Assembly (NCBI GenBank): GCA_947624105.1
Contig: CANQIX010000002.1
Location: forward strand, 1 to 63,268
Direction of reading: 5' to 3'
Length of the DNA: 63,268 bases
From: an uncultured Clostridia bacterium
Lineage (GTDB): Bacteria > Bacillota > Clostridia > Christensenellales > UBA1242
This document shows positions 64 to 32,803 of this stretch, one piece after another (position 1 is the stretch's first letter; every line of letters starts with the position of its first letter). The translations under genes and the position numbers were made by a program. The notes beneath the pieces were generated by a model. That model was not told the origin of the DNA. It did not search any database and worked only from the letters and a program-made list of their open reading frames with translations.

Positions 64-139
64 TGGGGTGTCGCCAAGCGGTAAGGCATTGGACTCTGAC
101 TCCAACATTGCGTAGGTTCGAATCCTACCACCCCAGCCA
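64..139 (+). tRNA. tRNA-Gln (anticodon CUG)
   Basis: Cloverleaf read by eye. Acceptor tggggtg pairs with cacccca. Anticodon stem ttgga/tccaa carries loop ctCTGac. T-arm is gtagg-ttcgaat-cctac, followed by an encoded CCA. Confidence 0.85.
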
Positions 140-146
140 CTATTGT

Positions 147-221
147 AGGGGTGTGGCCAAGCGGTAAGGCACAAGACTTTGACTCTTGCATTCGTAGGTT
201 CAAATCCTGCCACCCCTGCCA
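147..221 (+). tRNA. tRNA-Gln (anticodon UUG)
   Basis: Acceptor aggggtg pairs with cacccct. Anticodon stem caaga/tcttg carries loop ctTTGac. T-loop is ttcaaat, followed by an encoded CCA. Confidence 0.85.
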
Positions 222-252
222 TTTAATTTTATGGAACTGCAAAGTTCCCTTT

Positions 253-328
253 GGTCTGCTAGCTCAGTCGGTAGAGCACTTGACTTTTAATCAAGGGGTC
301 CCGGGTTCGAATCCCGGGCAGGCCACCA
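253..328 (+). tRNA. tRNA-Lys (anticodon UUU)
   Basis: Acceptor ggtctgc pairs with gcaggcc. D-loop is agctcagtcggtagagc. Anticodon stem cttga/tcaag carries loop ctTTTaa. T-arm is ccggg-ttcgaat-cccgg, followed by CCA. Confidence 0.9.
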
Positions 329-9060: not shown

Positions 9061-9089
9061 TTGACAACCGGCGCGAATAAGAATATAAT
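9061..9089 (+). promoter_or_regulatory. Consensus sigma-A promoter ahead of tRNA-Leu
   Basis: TTGACA at 9061-9066, a 17-nt spacer, then TATAAT at 9084-9089. Confidence 0.7.
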
Positions 9090-9104: not shown

Positions 9105-9190
9105 GCAGGGGTGGCGGAATGGCAGACGCGCTAGATTCAGGTTCTAGTGAACGCAAGTTCATGTGGGTTCAACTCCCATCTCCTGCACCA
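9105..9190 (+). tRNA. tRNA-Leu (anticodon CAG)
   Basis: Class II tRNA with a long variable arm (tgaacgcaagttcat). Anticodon stem ctaga/tctag carries loop ttCAGgt. Acceptor gcagggg pairs with ctcctgc, followed by CCA. Confidence 0.85.
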
Positions 9191-9206: not shown

Positions 9207-9776
9207 ATGAAAAATATAGAAACAGAAAGATTGATTTTGAGGGAGTGGACACTTAAAGATGTGCCTGACCAAGTGGAAGGGCTCGGCAATTTTGAAACGG
9301 CAAAAAATCTTACCGTTCCATTTCCTTACACTGAGGAAAATTCGGTTGCATATATCACGAAACACCTAAAAAACACTCCGGCAAGTTATGCTTTTGCCGT
9401 TCAACTTAAAGGCACAAACAAGGTGATTGGCGGAACAAGTTTGGATTTTAGAGATGGGCAATATAATGGCGGAATATGGCTGAACGAAGCATACACTGGC
9501 AAGGGCTACGGCACTGAGGTTTGGATTGCGCGCGCTAAATTCGCATTTGAAGTTTTGAAAGAAAAGGAAATTGTGTGCGGCTATTTTGAGTTTAATAACC
9601 GCTCCAAACATATGCAAGAAAAAATTGGGCATAAAACGGTTGGCAAACAGACAAATTTTTGCCCGGCGCTAAATAAAGAGGTTGCAGAAGTTCTCACGAC
9701 ACTTAAAAAAGAAGATTTCTATGCCGCAATGCAATCTCCAAAACTAAAACCAGTCTATGACAAAATCAAAGTGTAA
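9207..9776 (+). CDS. GNAT family N-acetyltransferase (RimJ/RimL-like)
   Basis: MKNIETERLILREWTLKD... is a typical RimJ/RimL N-terminus. The acetyl-CoA region reads GKGYGTE. The track start at 9147 overlaps tRNA-Leu and is rejected. Confidence 0.7.
   Translation: MKNIETERLILREWTLKDVPDQVEGLGNFETAKNLTVPFPYTEENSVAYITKHLKNTPASYAFAVQLKGTNKVIGGTSLDFRDGQYNGGIWLNEAYTGKGYGTEVWIARAKFAFEVLKEKEIVCGYFEFNNRSKHMQEKIGHKTVGKQTNFCPALNKEVAEVLTTLKKEDFYAAMQSPKLKPVYDKIKV
9701..9770 (+). repeat. Direct repeat copy A (3' end of the GNAT gene)
   Basis: acttaaaaaagaagatttctatgccgcaatgcaatctccaaaactaaaaccagtctatgacaaaatcaaa recurs at 9932-10002 with 1 indel and 2 substitutions. Confidence 0.9.
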
Positions 9777-9823
9777 ATGATTTGTGTGAGATTTACCCGC
9801 TTATTTCAATATAGAACAAACCA

Positions 9824-9852
9824 TTGACTTTTAAATTTTTATGGCATATAAT
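9824..9852 (+). promoter_or_regulatory. Sigma-A promoter between the direct repeats
   Basis: TTGACT at 9824-9829, a 17-nt spacer, then TATAAT at 9847-9852. Confidence 0.55.
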
Positions 9853-9858
9853 AATCAT

Positions 9859-9922
9859 AGCAAAGTAAATCAAATTTCTTTACGGCGGTCATCTTAAAGT
9901 TGGGCTCGCCGTTTCTTTTTTT
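9859..9922 (+). ncRNA. Candidate small RNA of about 65 nt, unknown function
   Basis: The promoter at 9824-9852 is followed by the GC stem acggcg (9882-9887) paired with cgccgt (9907-9912), then ttcttttttt. No ORF is present. The ends are predicted, not measured. Confidence 0.35.
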
Positions 9923-9931
9923 ATTTTTTCT

Positions 9932-10002
9932 ACTTAAAAAAAGAAGATTTCTATGCCGCAATGCAATCTCCAAAACTAAAACCGGTCTATGACAAAATTA
10001 AA
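9932..10002 (+). repeat. Direct repeat copy B (orphan duplicate of the GNAT 3' end)
   Basis: About 96 percent identical to 9701-9770. It is followed by a weak terminator. Confidence 0.9.
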
Positions 10003-10008
10003 AATACC

Positions 10009-10029
10009 AAAGGTGTTCAGCCTTTTTTT
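10009..10029 (+). terminator. Weak intrinsic terminator after repeat copy B
   Basis: Hairpin aaagg-tgttcag-ccttt followed by tttt. Confidence 0.4.
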
Positions 10030-10104: not shown

Positions 10105-10134
10105 TTGACATATATTAGGTTTTTATGTTAATTT
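10105..10134 (+). promoter_or_regulatory. Putative tracrRNA (and cas operon) promoter
   Basis: TTGACA at 10105-10110, an 18-nt spacer, then TGtTAATTT (extended -10) at 10126-10134. Confidence 0.5.
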
Positions 10135-10140
10135 ATTATT

Positions 10141-10249
10141 GTAACTTTATACCATACCAAACAGATTAAGGTTACTAAAACATGGGGATTCTCTTTTGAG
10201 ACCCGCAAAGCTCTAAGTCCGCTGGTTCTCAACGGACTTATCTTTTTTT
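10141..10249 (+). ncRNA. tracrRNA of the type II-C CRISPR-Cas9 system
   Basis: The anti-repeat at 10146-10181 (tttataccataccaaacagattaaggttactaaaac) matches the plus-strand CRISPR repeat at 30 of 36 positions. It therefore pairs with the minus-strand crRNA repeat, with internal mismatches forming a bulge. A stem gggattctc/gagaccc follows. The terminator aagtccg-ctggttctcaa-cggactt plus tcttttttt ends at 10249. The 5' end is predicted. Confidence 0.8.
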
Positions 10250-10261
10250 AAGGGGAAATTT

Positions 10262-13200
10262 ATGAAATATAGAATTGGTCTTGATATTGGAATAGCGTCG
10301 GTTGGCTGGTGCGTTATGAAGCACAATGAAAATGATGAGCCTTGCCAAATTATGGATTTAGGGGTTCGAAAGTTTTCGCCTGCAGAAAAGCCAAAAACGG
10401 GAGAATCTCCTGCCGTTGACAGAAGAGTTGCTCGCGGAATAAGAAGGAACATAAGACGCAAGAGGGAGAGGTTAGACAAATTAAAGGAGACACTTCAATC
10501 TCAACTTTTAGATGGGAAAGATATAGATTTTTCTCCATGTGAGTTGTATGTTTTGCGTGCAAAGGCTCTTGATGAAAAAATTGATGATAATGCACTTTCG
10601 CGTGTTATTTATTCTATTGCAAAGCATCGCGGTTTTAAATCAAATCGAAAGGCAGAGTTAAAAGAAAACGAAACTTCAAAGATGAAAAAAGCGATAGAAG
10701 AGAATAGAACAAACATCAGCAAATATCGTTCTATTGGTGAAATGTATCTAAAAGACGAAAAGTATCACGAAGTTCGTGAAAAAAGTTGCAATGGTGCAGT
10801 TACACAATATTCTGTTTTTCATACGCGAAATGATGCAAATCAATACGATAAAACATTGAGTAGGAGCGATGTGCTGAATGAGATTCAAACTATTCTTGAA
10901 GCGCAGCAACGATTAGGAAATGAAAAGATTACGACTGAATTTATAAATAAAATTTTGCACATTGTTGACTATCAAAAATCATACGATGAAGGGCCGGACT
11001 ATCCAAGCCCATATCACGTTTCATTTGCTGTAGGAAATTGCACGTTTTTTAAAGATGAGCAACGCGCTCCAAAGGCGGCATTTAGTTATGAATATTTTAC
11101 TGCACTTTGCGATATCAATCATTTGACTATAAATGGTGAAAAATTAACAGACGAGCAGAGACAAATCCTTATTGATGCATTTTTAAGTTCTGAGAGTGTA
11201 AAGTATTCTAAAGTTAAAAAACTTTTGAAACTTGATGAAAATGCAAAATTGGGCGGTAAAAGTGGTAGTGATAAAGACGACAGAGTTTTTGTGGCAAGAA
11301 AATTTTCTTATGAAGTCTTAAAAATCTTGAATATCAAAGAAAATCCAAAGGCTTATGAAGATTTGTTGAACAAAATTGCATACTGCTTTGCTATTTATAA
11401 GTCAGACGAGAGACGCTTGTCATATTTACATAAAGAAACTGACTTGTCTAAAGAAGAATGCGAAGCGCTTTTGGAACTTGACACAAGCAAGTTTGGAAAT
11501 CTGTGTGTAAAGGCGTTGAAAATGCTTAATACTGAACTTGAAAAAGGGGTAGTGTATTCTCAGGCGTGCCAAAATGCAGGACTTTTTAATGCTGAAAGCG
11601 AAAAGAAAATTAAGTTGAAATATAACGAGTTACCTGAAATTGAAGATATTACCTCGCCAGTTGTAAAGCGATCAGTTTCTCAAACGATAAAGGTTGTAAA
11701 CGCTATTATTGAAAAATATGGTTCTCCTTGCGCTATATATGTTGAACTTGCGCGTGAAATGAGCAAGGATTTTGCAGAGCGTAAAAAAATAGAGAAGCAG
11801 CAAGAAAGTGGATATGAGGAAAACGATAAGGCGATTAAAAGACTTAAAGAACTCGGCTTTGTTTCTCCAACTGGGCAAGATATTCTTAAATATAGACTTT
11901 ATGAAGAACAGGGCGGAAAATGTGCATACTCGCAGAAAGAATTTGTATCGGTGTTTGGCAGCCTTCAAAACGCATTTTTAAATAATAACACGCAAATTGA
12001 CCATATTATTCCTTACAGTCGCTGCTATAATGACAGTTTTAGCAATAAGGTGCTTGTGCTATCAAGCGAAAACTATGTAAAGGGGAATCGACTCCCTTAT
12101 GAATACTTTGGGAGCGATGAACAAAGATGGAATCAATTTGAAGCGTGGGCGATACAAACCTATCTAACAAACGGGAAAAAGAAGAGTCCTAAACTTGAAA
12201 GACTATTGCAAAGAGGACTTTCGGACGAGCAAGAACAAGAACTTAACAACCGCGCTTTGAACGATACAAGATATATATCCAAATTTGTTAAAGAATTATT
12301 CGAGAAACACTTAATTTTTGCCGACAGCAAACTTAGCAAAAGGCCCGTAAAAACCGTTAATGGGGTTATTACATCTTTCTTGCGCAAAATATGGGGTATA
12401 AAGAAGGAAAGATTTGAAAATGATTTGCACCACGCTGTTGACGCTTGTATCATTTCGTGCACAGATAACGGAATGATACAAAGAGTAACGAGGTTTATGC
12501 AATTTAATAGTTTGCTAAAGATTGGAAAAGAGCCCGTGTTTGTTGATAAATCTACAGGCGAAAAGTTCTCAGAAGAGCAAGTTCGTGAGAAGTATGGCGA
12601 CCATTACCAAATGCCATACGAGAACTTTAAAAGAGAGTTAGAGATTAGAATTTCTCCAAATGTTTTAAATTACAAAGACGAATTGTTTAAGTACGGATAC
12701 GATGAGGACGAATTGAACTCTTTAAGACCAGTTTTTGTTAGCAGAATGGTTAATCACAAGGTTACTGGACCAATGCACAAGCAAACAATCCGCAGCAAAA
12801 AATTATCAACAGAAGAAAATATTGTTGGGGTAACGAAAACCAGTATTCAAGAGTTAAAACTAGACAAAGACGGAGAAATTCAAGATTATCCAGAGAAATT
12901 CAAACAAGACGATCCTGTTTTGTATGAGGCACTAAGAAATCAGTTGAGAAAATTCCAAGAACAATATCCAACTGATTATGCGAAGAAGGCGTTTGCTGAG
13001 CCATTTTATAAGCCATCGCGCAATGCATCTAGCAGAAACGAAGTGAAGAGCGTTAAACTTGAAAAAAAGATGGGCGACGCAATTGAAGTCAATGGCGGAA
13101 TTGCTGAAAATGACTCAATGATAAGAATCGATGTATTTGAAAAAAAAGGAAAAACTTATTTTATTCCAGTCTATGTCATAGATTATTATAAAAAATCTCT

Positions 13201-13558
13201 TCCAAACAAAATAGCAAAGGCTGCATGTCCATATAAAGATTGGCCTGTTTGTGATGATAGTTATAAGTTTAAGTTTTCTCTCTATCAAAACGATTTAATA
13301 CATATAAAAAAGGATAAGCCAATTCCATTTTATCCAAGAGATAAAAAAGCCCCAAAAGAGGCAGTTATGCTAAACGACCTTTTCGTATATTATACGGGTG
13401 CAGACAGGTCAACAGCATCAATTTCTTTCGAAACGGTAGACGGTAAGTATTTTTCCAGAGGTAATGGGATTCAAGGCATAGAAATTGAGAAATATGAAGT
13501 CAGTATTTTGGGAAATGTTAGAAAAATTGATAACGAAACGCGCAAGGAGTTTTGCTGA
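10262..13558 (+). CDS. cas9: Cas9 endonuclease, type II-C, 1098 aa
   Basis: RuvC-I is MKYRIGLDIGIASVGW (D8). The Arg-rich bridge helix is RRVARGIRRNIRRKRERL. RuvC-II is IYVELARE. HNH is QIDHIIPYSRCYNDSFSNKVLVLSSENYVKGN (D580, H581; codons 11999-12004). RuvC-III is LHHAVDA (codons 12425-12445). cas1 and cas2 follow, with no csn2 or cas4. Confidence 0.95.
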   Translation: MKYRIGLDIGIASVGWCVMKHNENDEPCQIMDLGVRKFSPAEKPKTGESPAVDRRVARGIRRNIRRKRERLDKLKETLQSQLLDGKDIDFSPCELYVLRAKALDEKIDDNALSRVIYSIAKHRGFKSNRKAELKENETSKMKKAIEENRTNISKYRSIGEMYLKDEKYHEVREKSCNGAVTQYSVFHTRNDANQYDKTLSRSDVLNEIQTILEAQQRLGNEKITTEFINKILHIVDYQKSYDEGPDYPSPYHVSFAVGNCTFFKDEQRAPKAAFSYEYFTALCDINHLTINGEKLTDEQRQILIDAFLSSESVKYSKVKKLLKLDENAKLGGKSGSDKDDRVFVARKFSYEVLKILNIKENPKAYEDLLNKIAYCFAIYKSDERRLSYLHKETDLSKEECEALLELDTSKFGNLCVKALKMLNTELEKGVVYSQACQNAGLFNAESEKKIKLKYNELPEIEDITSPVVKRSVSQTIKVVNAIIEKYGSPCAIYVELAREMSKDFAERKKIEKQQESGYEENDKAIKRLKELGFVSPTGQDILKYRLYEEQGGKCAYSQKEFVSVFGSLQNAFLNNNTQIDHIIPYSRCYNDSFSNKVLVLSSENYVKGNRLPYEYFGSDEQRWNQFEAWAIQTYLTNGKKKSPKLERLLQRGLSDEQEQELNNRALNDTRYISKFVKELFEKHLIFADSKLSKRPVKTVNGVITSFLRKIWGIKKERFENDLHHAVDACIISCTDNGMIQRVTRFMQFNSLLKIGKEPVFVDKSTGEKFSEEQVREKYGDHYQMPYENFKRELEIRISPNVLNYKDELFKYGYDEDELNSLRPVFVSRMVNHKVTGPMHKQTIRSKKLSTEENIVGVTKTSIQELKLDKDGEIQDYPEKFKQDDPVLYEALRNQLRKFQEQYPTDYAKKAFAEPFYKPSRNASSRNEVKSVKLEKKMGDAIEVNGGIAENDSMIRIDVFEKKGKTYFIPVYVIDYYKKSLPNKIAKAACPYKDWPVCDDSYKFKFSLYQNDLIHIKKDKPIPFYPRDKKAPKEAVMLNDLFVYYTGADRSTASISFETVDGKYFSRGNGIQGIEIEKYEVSILGNVRKIDNETRKEFC

Positions 13559-14445
13559 TGGCGTATCTAAATCTCTTTGTCGGTTCAAACTGCCATATTA
13601 GTATAAAGAATTCACAATTGTTTTTAAAAAATGATATTAAACAAGAAGATTTCCCAGTTGAAGATATAAATTCAATAGTAATCGAAAATTTGCAGTCGAA
13701 CATCTCTCTTTATACGCTATCTTTCCTCGCTAAAAACAATGTTGCTGTTTTTATCTGTGACGAGCAACATTTACCATCTGCTTATCTTTTGCCATTTAAT
13801 TCCAACTACAATCAAACAAAGATGTTTAAAATTCAAACTGATATTTCTTTGCCATTTCAAAAGCAACTTTGGCAAGATATTGTTAAGCATAAAATAGAAA
13901 ATCAAAACAAATGTTTGATTTTGTGCAAAAAGAAAGGAATATTAGATGAGTTGATAAAAAGAGTAAAAACTCACGATAACACAAATGTCGAAGCGACGGC
14001 TGCAAGTAAATATTTTAAGGCATTGTTTGAATCGAATTTTACAAGAGAAAAAGACTGCGACATAAATTCCGCACTCAATTATGGATATTCAATTTTACGA
14101 GGCGCGATTGCACGAAATTTAGTTGCTCACGGGCTACTACCATTTTTAGGATTAAAACATAGTAATGTTTTAAACAATTTCAATCTCGCCGATGATTTAA
14201 TTGAAGTTTTTCGCCCTTTTGTGGATTTGTTGGTATATCAAAATTCTGAGATGCCATTTGATACAAAATACAAGATGAAACTTTTAAATCTACTTAATTA
14301 CGATTGCAAAATTTCCAATGGGTATTACACAATATCTTATGCGATAGAACTTTTTGTTCAATCGTATGTTGAAACCTTAAAATCTAAAGAGAACAAACTG
14401 AAATATCCAGAACTAATTCAGTTAAAGATGCACGAGTATGAGTAG
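13558..14445 (+). CDS. cas1: Cas1 integrase
   Basis: Follows cas9 with a TGATG overlap and an SD aaggag 8 nt upstream; the ORF also opens at TTG 13552. About 296 aa with a type II Cas1-like pattern (NTNVEATAASKYFKALF..., ALNYGYSILRGAIARNLVAHGLLP). Confidence 0.85.
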   Translation: MAYLNLFVGSNCHISIKNSQLFLKNDIKQEDFPVEDINSIVIENLQSNISLYTLSFLAKNNVAVFICDEQHLPSAYLLPFNSNYNQTKMFKIQTDISLPFQKQLWQDIVKHKIENQNKCLILCKKKGILDELIKRVKTHDNTNVEATAASKYFKALFESNFTREKDCDINSALNYGYSILRGAIARNLVAHGLLPFLGLKHSNVLNNFNLADDLIEVFRPFVDLLVYQNSEMPFDTKYKMKLLNLLNYDCKISNGYYTISYAIELFVQSYVETLKSKENKLKYPELIQLKMHEYE

Positions 14446-14758
14446 CATTATGAGGCTTTTAGTGTTTTTTGACTTGCCGGTAAAAACAAAAGAAGAAAAT
14501 AGGCAGGCGACACAGTTTAGAAAATTTTTGATCGATGATGGATTTTATATGATTCAATTTTCGTTGTATGGAAGAATATGCGCTACCATAGAAAATGCAA
14601 AACAGCACGAAGATAAAATTAAAAACTATCTACCATTTAAAGGTTCGGTTCGCAGTTTGATAATTACAGAAAAACAGTATGCAGGAATGAAGATTCTTTT
14701 AGGCAATACTAAGAAAAAAGACAAAAAAGTTGTTGAAGGACAGATTTCTTTTTTCTAA
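14438..14758 (+). CDS. cas2: Cas2
   Basis: 106 aa. (M)RLLVFFDLPVKTKEENRQATQFRKFLIDDGFYMIQFSLYGR is a typical type II Cas2. It overlaps the cas1 stop by 8 nt. An alternative ATG lies at 14450. Confidence 0.85.
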   Translation: MSSIMRLLVFFDLPVKTKEENRQATQFRKFLIDDGFYMIQFSLYGRICATIENAKQHEDKIKNYLPFKGSVRSLIITEKQYAGMKILLGNTKKKDKKVVEGQISFF

Positions 14759-14828: not shown

Positions 14829-14871
14829 GGCTACATCAACGGAAAAACCGTAGATATAGCCTTTTGCTTTT
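14829..14871. terminator. Bidirectional terminator between cas2 and the CRISPR array
   Basis: Imperfect 14-bp hairpin ggctacatcaacgg-aaaaa-ccgtagatatagcc. It is flanked by ttttgctttt on the plus strand and ttttgtttttt on the minus strand. Confidence 0.6.
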
Positions 14872-14879
14872 AGTTCTCT

Positions 14880-15510
14880 ATTATACCATACCAAACAAAA
14901 TAAGGGAACTAAAATGTTTCGATGCTTGAAATCTTACTCATTTCTATTATACCATACCAAACAAAATAAGGGAACTAAAATGCTTGTAGTTTTGCCTTTG
15001 CAAGGTCTATTATTATACCATACCAAACAAAATAAGGGAACTAAAATCCGTAGTTGATTTGGCTGTTTGCGCTACAAGATTATACCATACCAAACAAAAT
15101 AAGGGAACTAAAATTAGTTTGCTGCTATTGAACAATTCACCATCATTATACCATACCAAACAAAATAAGGGAACTAAAATATTTGTAAAGTCTCCATACA
15201 TTCCTTGAACATTATACCATACCAAACAAAATAAGGGAACTAAAATCAGGCTGTTGTAGTATTTTCTCCGTTAAATATTATACCATACCAAACAAAATAA
15301 GGGAACTAAAATACTTTGTTGATGCACGCTGAAGTCAAATTCATTATACCATACCAAACAAAATAAGGGAACTAAAATAAAATGGTGTTACATAAAGCAA
15401 GTAATCAAATTATACCATACCAAACAAAATAAGGGAACTAAAATTGTCTTTTAACTTGAAACTCCAACATTTTGATTATATCATATAAAAGCAGAATTAG
15501 AAAACTAAAA
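14880..15510 (-). CRISPR. CRISPR array: 9 identical 36-nt repeats, 1 degenerate terminal repeat, 9 spacers
   Basis: The plus-strand repeat is attataccataccaaacaaaataagggaactaaaat. Repeats start at 14880, 14946, 15012, 15079, 15145, 15211, 15277, 15343 and 15409, with the degenerate copy at 15475-15510. Spacers are 30 nt except spacer 3 (15048-15078), which is 31 nt. In crRNA sense (minus strand) the repeat reads ATTTTAGTTCCCTTATTTTGTTTGGTATGGTATAAT. Confidence 0.97.
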
Positions 15511-15560
15511 ACTTTATGCTTTTGCTTGATTTTTGATGATTTTTATGCAATAATATGATT

Positions 15561-15682
15561 ACCATAAAGAGTGTGTTAGGGACAAGCCCGTTGATCACAC
15601 AGCAACCTGCAAGTGCAAGGTGCTAAGGCTTGAACGATGGAGTTATATGAAGTTTAATCCCATCGTATCGATGGGATTTTTT
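15561..15682 (+). promoter_or_regulatory. SAM-I (S-box) riboswitch leader of metK
   Basis: Conserved S-box elements are present: aaagagtgtgttagggacaagcccgttgatcacacagcaacc...aaggtgctaa. The terminator is aatcccatcg-tat-cgatgggatt followed by tttt. The cgatgg at 15635-15640 can instead pair with cccatcg as an antiterminator. metK lies directly downstream. Confidence 0.85.
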
Positions 15683-15712
15683 AATCTCTTTATGTGTTAA
15701 AAGGGGTAAAAA

Positions 15713-16828
15713 ATGAAAAAGAAGGAAACAACAAGAAAAATAATCACAAGTGAAAGCGTAAATATTGGGCACCCGGACAAGACTTGCGATTACATTGCCG
15801 ACAGTTTTTTAGACGAGGCGCTTAGGCAAGATAAAAACAGCCAAATGGCGGTTGAATGTGCGATAAAAAACGACAAATTGTTTATCTATGGAGAGGCAAC
15901 TACGACTGCCAAAATTGACTATGATGCCATCGCCAAAAAGGCGCTGAAAGAGATAGGCTATCAAAACGAATTTACGATAGTAAAAGAATTAAGCGAGCAA
16001 AGTGTGGAGATAAATCGTGCGGTGAACAGCACAGAAATCTCTGCGAATGACCAAGGAATTGTGTATGGTTATGCGACAAACGAAACGGACACATTTATGC
16101 CACTTCCAATCACGCTTGCACACGAACTTATGAAGAAATACGATGCGTATAGGCGCAGTGGAGAGGAGTTTTTTGCAGATGCGAAATCGCAGGTTAGTGT
16201 GCTTTATGAAGACGACAAACCTATAAGGGTAACCGATCTACTAATTTCCGTTTCGCACGCAGAAAATTTGAAAAGTGGCGAAATCTATGCAAAAATAATG
16301 CAAAATGTAATAAAACCAACGATAAAAAAGTATGAAAAGTATTTTGACGACAATACGAAATACATCATAAATCCAAGCGGGAAGTTTACGATTTGGGGGA
16401 GTTTTGGAGACAGTGGCTGCGTTGGAAGGAAGATCATCGTCGACACCTATGGCGGAGTTGGACGAGTTGGCGGAGGGTGTTTTTCTTCTAAAAACGCGAC
16501 CAAAGTCGATAGATCTGGGGCATACTACGCGCGATATGTTGCAAAAAATATTGTGGCGAACGGGCTTGCAGACAGGTGCGAAGTTGAGGCTTGCTTTGCG
16601 ATAGGCGTAGCAAAACCTTTAAGCATCTCGATTGACTGCTTTGGCACGAACAAAGTTCCAGAGGAGCAGATTGAGAAGTTTGTTTCGAAAAATTTTGACT
16701 TCTCACTTAGCAATATAATAAAGGAACTTGATTTGCTTAAGCCGATATACAAAAACACTGCCTGCTATGGGCACTTTGGCAGAGGCGAATTTCCTTGGGA
16801 GAAGGTAAAGAATTTGAGGGAAGAATGA
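15713..16828 (+). CDS. metK: S-adenosylmethionine synthetase
   Basis: ITSESVNIGHPDKTCDYIADSFLDEAL and GGGCFSSKNATKVDRSGAYYARY are MetK signatures. SD aaagggg lies upstream. Confidence 0.92.
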   Translation: MKKKETTRKIITSESVNIGHPDKTCDYIADSFLDEALRQDKNSQMAVECAIKNDKLFIYGEATTTAKIDYDAIAKKALKEIGYQNEFTIVKELSEQSVEINRAVNSTEISANDQGIVYGYATNETDTFMPLPITLAHELMKKYDAYRRSGEEFFADAKSQVSVLYEDDKPIRVTDLLISVSHAENLKSGEIYAKIMQNVIKPTIKKYEKYFDDNTKYIINPSGKFTIWGSFGDSGCVGRKIIVDTYGGVGRVGGGCFSSKNATKVDRSGAYYARYVAKNIVANGLADRCEVEACFAIGVAKPLSISIDCFGTNKVPEEQIEKFVSKNFDFSLSNIIKELDLLKPIYKNTACYGHFGRGEFPWEKVKNLREE

Positions 16829-32728: not shown

Positions 32729-32803
32729 TGGTGATCTCGAGGGGAATCGAACCCCTGATACCGCCGTGAAAGGGCGGTGTCTTAACCGCTTGACCACGAG
32801 ACC
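32729..32803 (-). tRNA. tRNA-Glu (anticodon UUC)
   Basis: The minus strand reads ggtctcgtggtcaagcggttaagacaccgccctttcacggcggtatcaggggttcgattcccctcgagatcacca. Anticodon stem ccgcc/ggcgg carries loop ctTTCac. CCA is encoded. Confidence 0.88.

Follow-up and report, generated by a model that had tools for sequence, protein, structure and literature searches.

An antisense CRISPR array of type II-C in an uncultured Clostridia bacterium with probable extended -10 promoters inside its repeats

[quoted passage not shown] These questions are raised by a locus on contig CANQIX010000002.1 (assembly GCA_947624105.1) of an uncultured Clostridia bacterium, of which the whole stretch analysed, 63,268 nucleotides (nt) in length, is called the window in the following. 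The order of the elements is trans-activating CRISPR RNA (tracrRNA), cas9, cas1, cas2, terminator with leader, and array, which is the minimal type II-C layout. Neither csn2, the mark of type II-A, nor cas4, the mark of type II-B, was found in the map of open reading frames or by profile search, and cas9, cas1 and cas2 are contiguous. The locus is a type II-C CRISPR-Cas9 system with the minimal cas9-cas1-cas2 set, and as a whole it is very probably explained by an array that is read on the minus strand and fired from promoters within its own repeats.

The array occupies positions 14880-15474 on the minus strand and consists of nine exactly identical 36-nt repeats (14880-15444) and nine spacers of 30 nt, one of which has 31 nt; the ninth spacer is located at 15445-15474. 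The repeat reads ATTATACCATACCAAACAAAATAAGGGAACTAAAAT on the plus strand and ATTTTAGTTCCCTTATTTTGTTTGGTATGGTATAAT on the minus strand. In the minus sense it starts with ATTTTAG and ends with TGGTATAAT in nine of nine cases, which bears out the claim of an earlier note on this DNA that nine repeats carry a perfect extended -10 box on this strand. Repeat 1, the cas-proximal and leader-adjacent one, extends from 14880 to 14915 with its box TGGTATAAT at 14888-14880. It is followed by repeat 2 (14946-14981, box 14954-14946, which would drive the spacer at 14916-14945), repeat 3 (15012-15047, box 15020-15012), repeat 4 (15079-15114, box 15087-15079), repeat 5 (15145-15180, box 15153-15145), repeat 6 (15211-15246, box 15219-15211), repeat 7 (15277-15312, box 15285-15277), repeat 8 (15343-15378, box 15351-15343) and repeat 9 (15409-15444, box 15417-15409), all of them on the minus strand. 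The string TGNTATAAT is present 15 times in the window, compared to an expectation of 2.5 +/- 1.5, and ten of these copies are found in the array. The tenth in-array copy (15475-15483) belongs to a degenerate tenth repeat at 15475-15511, which the earlier note overlooked while describing the other nine correctly.

The strand of the CRISPR RNAs (crRNAs) can be judged from the tracrRNA. This RNA is encoded on the plus strand at about 10141-10249, just upstream of cas9, and comprises an anti-repeat (TTTATACCATACCAAACAGATTAAGGTTACTAAAAC, 10146-10181), a conserved tail (...CCCGCAAAGCTCTAA...) and a terminator with its stem at 10215-10239 and a T-run at 10243-10249; the fold has a z-score of -3.3 and a terminal hairpin. 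As read from the sequence, a promoter-like site (TTGACA, 17-18 nt, TGT-TAATTT) precedes it at 10105-10134 on the plus strand. A simple promoter scan skipped this site because of its imperfect -10 element; a relative (L001) possesses TTGACT...TATAAT at the equivalent position. Rfam contains no match for the tracrRNA, the only matches in the window being tRNAs and a riboswitch. The duplex of the anti-repeat with the minus-sense repeat has an energy of -40.2 kcal/mol and extends over about 34 nt, interrupted by an internal loop of two bases, whereas that with the plus-sense repeat reaches only -10.1 kcal/mol.

The comparison with relatives leads to the same result. We fetched 80 loci encoding a Cas9 with 37-74% identity from genomes of Clostridia, Lachnospiraceae and Oscillospiraceae, including Roseburia inulinivorans. 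About 50 of the 80 possess an array with 36-nt repeats, nearly always downstream of cas2 and antisense, and in 37 loci, the window included, a tracrRNA is located upstream of cas9 on the strand of the cas genes. Among 35 distinct combinations of repeat and anti-repeat, compensatory double changes are found at 24 of the 36 duplex positions, and the internal loop at duplex positions 9-10 (T:T and C:T) is invariant. Because of the duplex energy and these compensatory changes, it is practically certain that the crRNA is the minus-strand transcript, antisense to the cas genes. The earlier note had placed the tracrRNA and its terminator on the plus strand and the crRNA on the minus strand, and was right in both respects.

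One could also assume that the array is reached by read-through from cas2, the crRNA then carrying the plus-strand repeat, since the array is situated downstream of cas2 in the same segment and many annotation tools choose this strand by default. However, pairing with the tracrRNA and covariation both favour the minus sense, and a strong terminator separates cas2 from the array. Furthermore, it is the minus-sense repeat that begins with ATTTTAGTTCCC, as do other type II repeats including that of the Geobacillus II-C system (GTCATAGTTCCC..., PMC8100143). A plus-strand reading, to which we assign virtually no probability, is excluded by pairing and covariation.

As a side aspect, three relatives contain arrays of the same repeat family in the sense of cas9 (L003, 7996-8230; L075, 9068-9499; L050, 5877-6110), two of them upstream of cas9. 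The antisense array downstream of the cas genes is the usual layout in this clade, not an obligatory one.

With the strand settled, the second question concerns the start of the transcripts. The boxes of the nine repeats are copies of one sequence and amount to a single observation, which is a first weakness of the promoter interpretation, and independent support must therefore come from relatives. We compiled a profile of 44 distinct repeats, minus-sense positions 1-36, from the related loci. Positions 26-36 read TRTGnTATAAT across these repeats: T26 is present in 42 of 44, R27 is always a purine (39 A, 5 G), T28 is invariant (44/44), G29 is found in 42 of 44, position 30 is G in 33, A in 9 and T in 2 repeats, and each position of TATAAT is kept in 42 to 44. 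Within the 11-nt block, conservation is thus lowest at R and n, exactly the degenerate positions of the consensus. The middle of the repeat (positions 13-21) is variable with 0.4-1.0 bit. The block of the window repeat, TATGgTATAAT, corresponds to the Gram-positive extended -10 promoter with its '-16 region', TRTGn-TATAAT (TRTG consensus as cited in PMC6570832). There is no usable -35 element in the repeat, the expected place being taken by TTCCCT; absence of a -35 element is typical for extended -10 promoters. The comparison lends support to the promoter interpretation of the earlier note, TRTGnTATAAT being the conserved core of the repeat family.

The last position of the repeat is informative on the role of pairing with the tracrRNA. 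T36 is invariant in 35 of 35 combinations, while its tracrRNA partner is A in 21, C in 7, T in 5 and G in 2 of them. Duplex formation does therefore not account for the conservation of T36, and the constraint sits in the repeat DNA and not in the RNA duplex. These patterns support the conclusion that the extended -10 block is under selection as a promoter, beyond its role in the duplex, and we regard it as very probable that the repeats are functional promoters.

The degenerate tenth repeat (15475-15511, minus strand, TTTTTAGTTTTCTAATTCTGCTTTTATATGATATAAT), the 'extra' and oldest one, is instructive as well. It retains TGATATAAT, and its block, TATGaTATAAT (box at 15483-15475), is altered at n only, whereas nine of its ten changes are located in the remaining 25 nt outside the 11-nt block. 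Its pairing with the tracrRNA is reduced to -15.5 kcal/mol, compared to -40.2 kcal/mol for an intact repeat. By its sequence, this box would drive the ninth spacer (15445-15474). In three relatives (L002, L013, L044) remnants of a terminal repeat have likewise kept the promoter end alone. The tenth repeat was also considered as a tracrRNA, which we rejected, because it behaves as a terminal repeat that is shared with other samples; it lacks both a structured tail and a terminator and is followed by the metK promoter.

The main alternative on the transcript side is a single long minus-strand pre-crRNA, started from a promoter between the array and metK and matured by RNase III and 5' trimming as in type II-A; the -10 appearance of the repeat end would then be unused. 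The nearly complete 36-nt duplex of repeat and anti-repeat is a good RNase III substrate, and RNase III processing takes place alongside internal promoters in N. meningitidis (PMC5965381). The only candidate for an external promoter is weak (CTAACA-18-TATTAT, 9 of 12 matching positions, at 15579-15550 on the minus strand, beyond the distal end), and the region is taken by the divergent metK promoter and its riboswitch. Of what one would expect from a leader-driven array of the II-A kind, we found this match past the distal end but no csn2. Moreover, a long pre-crRNA as the sole route leaves unexplained why TRTGnTATAAT is conserved with variation just at R and n, why T36 is invariant in spite of a variable partner and why the block survives in the decayed extra repeat. 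We consider this explanation improbable.

A second alternative takes the repeat end as a recognition site of the Cas1-Cas2 integrase and, more generally, as part of the inverted likeness between the two termini of type II repeats; its resemblance to a -10 element would then be incidental. Spacers seem to be inserted beside the leader, which the ATTATACC end adjoins, and the two ends of the repeat have a TTnTA-like core in common (5' end ATTTTA; reverse-complemented 3' end ATTATA). However, integrase recognition does not predict that R and n are the least conserved positions, with purines only at R, and the degenerate distal repeat is no integration site, yet its block is intact. In addition, the differing repeats of Neisseria and Campylobacter share the -10 features only, and these are experimentally active promoters (PMC3656092, PMC5965381). 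As a full explanation, integrase recognition seems to us even slightly less probable than the long pre-crRNA. The two roles of the repeat end are not mutually exclusive, and an integrase role may contribute to its conservation.

Some points weigh against repeat-internal promoters, besides the common origin of the nine boxes. Positions 22-25 (TTGG) are conserved too, although they are outside the reach of the promoter motif, which would fit an integrase site. The TATAAT end is the repeat's leader-proximal end, and recognition by the integrase could conserve it. The match at 15579-15550 could serve an additional long pre-crRNA, a route which may exist alongside the internal starts. The activity of the promoters and the start sites with their triphosphate 5' ends are predictions from the sequence. 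Finally, purines at spacer positions 6-8, around the predicted start, are not enriched over 789 related spacers, a result that we rate as neutral. G is present at position 7 in six of the nine window spacers, but at 23% against a background of 20% among the 789 related 30-nt spacers (p = 0.05, uncorrected) this is no signal.

On balance, the promoter interpretation suggests the following working of the locus. The cas operon and the array, which is read on the minus strand, converge, and from the extended -10 element of each repeat RNA polymerase would begin about 6-8 nt inside the spacer that follows. The resulting nested primary transcripts would have 5' ends that already fix a guide length of about 23-25 nt. 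Their repeat portion would pair almost from end to end with the tracrRNA, which is transcribed from the plus strand upstream of cas9, the duplex would be bound by Cas9, and RNase III could trim its 3' side. The degenerate distal repeat would act as a promoter block only, which fires the oldest spacer and yields no 'extraneous' crRNA that could be loaded onto Cas9. New spacers enter at the cas-proximal repeat, beside the short leader ending in ...TTCTCT. The transcript from repeat 1 would run straight into the terminator and yield no crRNA, and the same hairpin would stop read-through from the cas operon, which would otherwise be a source of antisense crRNA.

The predicted start and guide length agree with published values for type II-C systems: crRNAs of N. 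meningitidis start at the sixth spacer nucleotide (PMC12477760), and those of C. cellulolyticum contain 23-26 nt of spacer (PMC7038990). The 23-24 nt predicted by the earlier note likewise fall within the published range. A promoter in each repeat has been demonstrated for C. jejuni by differential RNA sequencing (PMC3656092), and repeat-internal promoters of N. meningitidis are reviewed in PMC5965381. The window shares with the Neisseria and Campylobacter systems the cas9-cas1-cas2 set, the array opposite to the cas genes, a tracrRNA that pairs with the repeat, an extended -10 element in the last 9 nt of a 36-nt repeat and an oldest 'extra' repeat at the transcription-upstream end. In those systems transcription starts a few nt into the spacer; here, such starts are predicted from the sequence. 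There are also differences: the host is a Firmicute of the class Clostridia and neither a proteobacterium nor a campylobacterium, the tracrRNA is located immediately upstream of cas9, and the box is a perfect Gram-positive TRTGnTATAAT, unlike those of Neisseria (TGCTACAAT) and Campylobacter (TGGTAAAAT).

A closer comparison is offered by C. cellulolyticum H10 (CcCas9), also a clostridial host, where small-RNA sequencing in E. coli revealed an array opposite to the cas genes (PMC7038990). The authors noted an extended -10 element in the terminal nine nt of the repeat, but their study did not distinguish internal initiation from processing (PMC7038990). Cas9 lineage and repeat sequence differ from those of the window. 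The repeat of the Geobacillus II-C systems GeoCas9/CaldoCas9, GTCATAGTTCCCCTGAGATTATCGCTGTGGTATAAT (PMC8100143), belongs to the same family as the window repeat; positions 5-12 are TAGTTCCC in both, and positions 26-36 are TGTGGTATAAT (TRTGnTATAAT). The middle of the repeat differs, and the Geobacillus host is a thermophilic relative of Bacillus, its systems being known mainly as editing tools. In the survey of more than 650 II-C systems by Feussner et al. (2025), spacers are acquired at the last repeat and the extra repeats are mutated (PMC12080349). The window resembles this picture in that its upstream oldest repeat is heavily mutated in the part that forms the Cas9 handle and pairs with the tracrRNA, and in that spacers are added at the opposite end.

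Repeat promoters, antisense array, cas-proximal acquisition and a mutated extra repeat are hence all published features of type II-C systems. The novelty that the earlier note had seen in the locus was overstated, given this general II-C model (PMC12080349) and the previous remark on the resemblance of the nine terminal nt (PMC7038990). What is added here is one more example, with a broad comparison across gut Clostridia, of antisense II-C arrays with repeat-internal promoters. In practical terms, the correct strand is fixed for spacer and protospacer adjacent motif (PAM) analysis, and a ready tracrRNA:crRNA design is available for a compact Cas9 of 1098 amino acids. The finding on the repeat promoters opens no new question; the parts that might repay further work are the module of leader and terminator and the start of cas9 12 nt past the tracrRNA terminator.

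The leader contains a hairpin, GGCTACATCAACGG-AAAAA-CCGTAGATATAGCC, at 14829-14861, which is preceded by an A-run and followed by a T-run (plus strand) and therefore reads as a terminator on both strands; the minus-strand fold has a z-score of -5.75. It ends 18 nt from the first repeat, and most of 48 distinct related leaders have an equivalent hairpin at a distance of about 8-15 nt from their own. We infer that this hairpin ends the array transcripts as well as the futile transcript of the leader-adjacent repeat and blocks read-through from the cas genes. The leader end CTTTTAGTTCTCT (14867-14879, plus strand), with ...TTCTCT as its last nucleotides, adjoins the first repeat and copies part of the crRNA-sense repeat start in inverted orientation (minus-strand match TAGAGAACTAAAAG). 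It is probably the leader-repeat junction for spacer integration, and the motif at the junction would serve this process. In the relatives ...TTCCCT is kept beside the repeat (T at -1 in 39, C at -2 in 38 and C at -3 in 30 of 48). The similarity of leader end and repeat start scores 12.6, compared to 9.2 for shuffled leader ends; against permuted partners (12.15 +/- 0.26; the observed score is attained in 91 of 2000 permutations) the preference of a leader end for its own repeat is marginal.

The leader of the clade, from cas2 to the array, is generally very short and stereotyped (14829-14879 in the window; array flanks of L001-L080), and its junction ...(G)TTCCCT partially copies repeat positions 7-13 in inverted orientation. 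No description of such a stereotyped leader design for type II-C was found in the literature compared here. The survey of Feussner et al. (PMC12080349) does not address the cas-proximal side, where the window and its relatives carry the ...TTCCCT junction (...TTCTCT in the window) and an abutting terminator. We tentatively propose, with slightly more doubt than confidence, that the leader of this clade is a compact, undescribed two-part module of junction motif and bidirectional terminator. As its first part, ...(G)TTCCCT, a partial inverted copy of the Cas9 handle of the repeat, would anchor Cas1-Cas2 at the transcription-downstream repeat; alternatively, it would base-pair with the newest repeat of the same transcript. 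As its second part, the terminator at a distance of 8-15 nt would abort the futile transcript of the leader-adjacent repeat and, by blocking read-through from the cas operon, prevent the formation of a perfect anti-crRNA.

The minus-strand piece AGAGAACTAAAAG (14879-14867) together with the hairpin was also considered as a second tracrRNA and rejected. Its match comprises just 13 nt, half of which would be cut off by a start 7 nt past the box, the duplex has an energy of -9.4 kcal/mol, and the relatives keep just ...TTCCCT at this place.

Contigs from other samples carry an identical cas2 and leader and illustrate the turnover of the spacers. In L083 the cas-proximal spacer differs, whereas the oldest spacer and the degenerate repeat are common to the window, L082 and L086. 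These sequences therefore indicate that new spacers enter at the cas-proximal, transcription-downstream end, the decayed distal repeat being the oldest. L082 (990-1100) has the same cas2, leader and metK, but between them just a single full repeat, followed by the oldest spacer and the degenerate repeat; either the array of this strain is minimal or the assembly has collapsed over the repeats. A comparison of the whole array with 50,697 phage records resulted in chance-level matches only (E >= 0.05). For the 3' 20-21 nt of three spacers, IMG/VR returned one 20-nt match, with the other 10 nt mismatched. Without a convincing protospacer in the phage or IMG/VR collections, no PAM is derivable.

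The cas genes, all on the plus strand, are typical of the type. Cas9 (10262-13558, 1098 amino acids) matches TIGR01865 over its full length (754 bits) and possesses the HNH and RuvC Pfam domains. Its best matches among solved structures (PDB) are chains of 1082-1154 amino acids (E 1e-194 to 1e-197), and the next Cas9 structures follow at E of about 1e-147; the match listing does not name species. We take some of the best matches (E of about 1e-195) to be Geobacillus Cas9s, and the chains at about 1e-147 are presumably of the Neisseria type. By its size and structure matches, this Cas9 groups with the compact II-C orthologs. It is followed by cas1 (13552-14445; TIGR03639, 278 bits), of the type II NMENI class, and cas2 (14438-14758; TIGR01573, 75 bits).

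The start codon of cas9 is located 12 nt after the tracrRNA terminator (10243-10262), and in the relatives L001, L004, L007, L010, L011, L024, L032, L046, L051, L055 and L074 it likewise follows the T-run after about 12-30 nt; in other relatives the distance is longer. Between T-run and cas9 only a ribosome-binding site and no separate promoter is visible. The expression of cas9 may require transcripts that run past the tracrRNA terminator.

The CRISPR locus is flanked by a tRNA and a GNAT acetyltransferase gene upstream and by an S-adenosylmethionine (SAM) riboswitch and metK downstream of the array. The SAM-I riboswitch (RF00162, 52.8 bits, region 15559-15712, terminator hairpin 15656-15678) is preceded by a TG-type promoter at 15526-15554 and directly followed by metK (15713-16828), and this unit adjoins the cas-distal end of the array. 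There are six tRNA genes in the window (64-325, 9105-9187, 32732-32803). The one at 9105-9187, a short way upstream of the CRISPR locus, has a consensus promoter (9061-9089) before it and the GNAT gene after it. The final ~75 nt of this gene (9700-9776) recur at about 9940-10010, and the two copies enclose a near-consensus promoter (TTGACT-17-TATAAT, 9824-9852) together with a hairpin plus T-run (about 9884-9925). We judged this promoter-plus-hairpin unit (9824-9925) to be unrelated to the CRISPR finding; it folds weakly and is absent in the closest relative (L001). The duplication unit at 9700-10020 may be an insertion scar or an unannotated small RNA.

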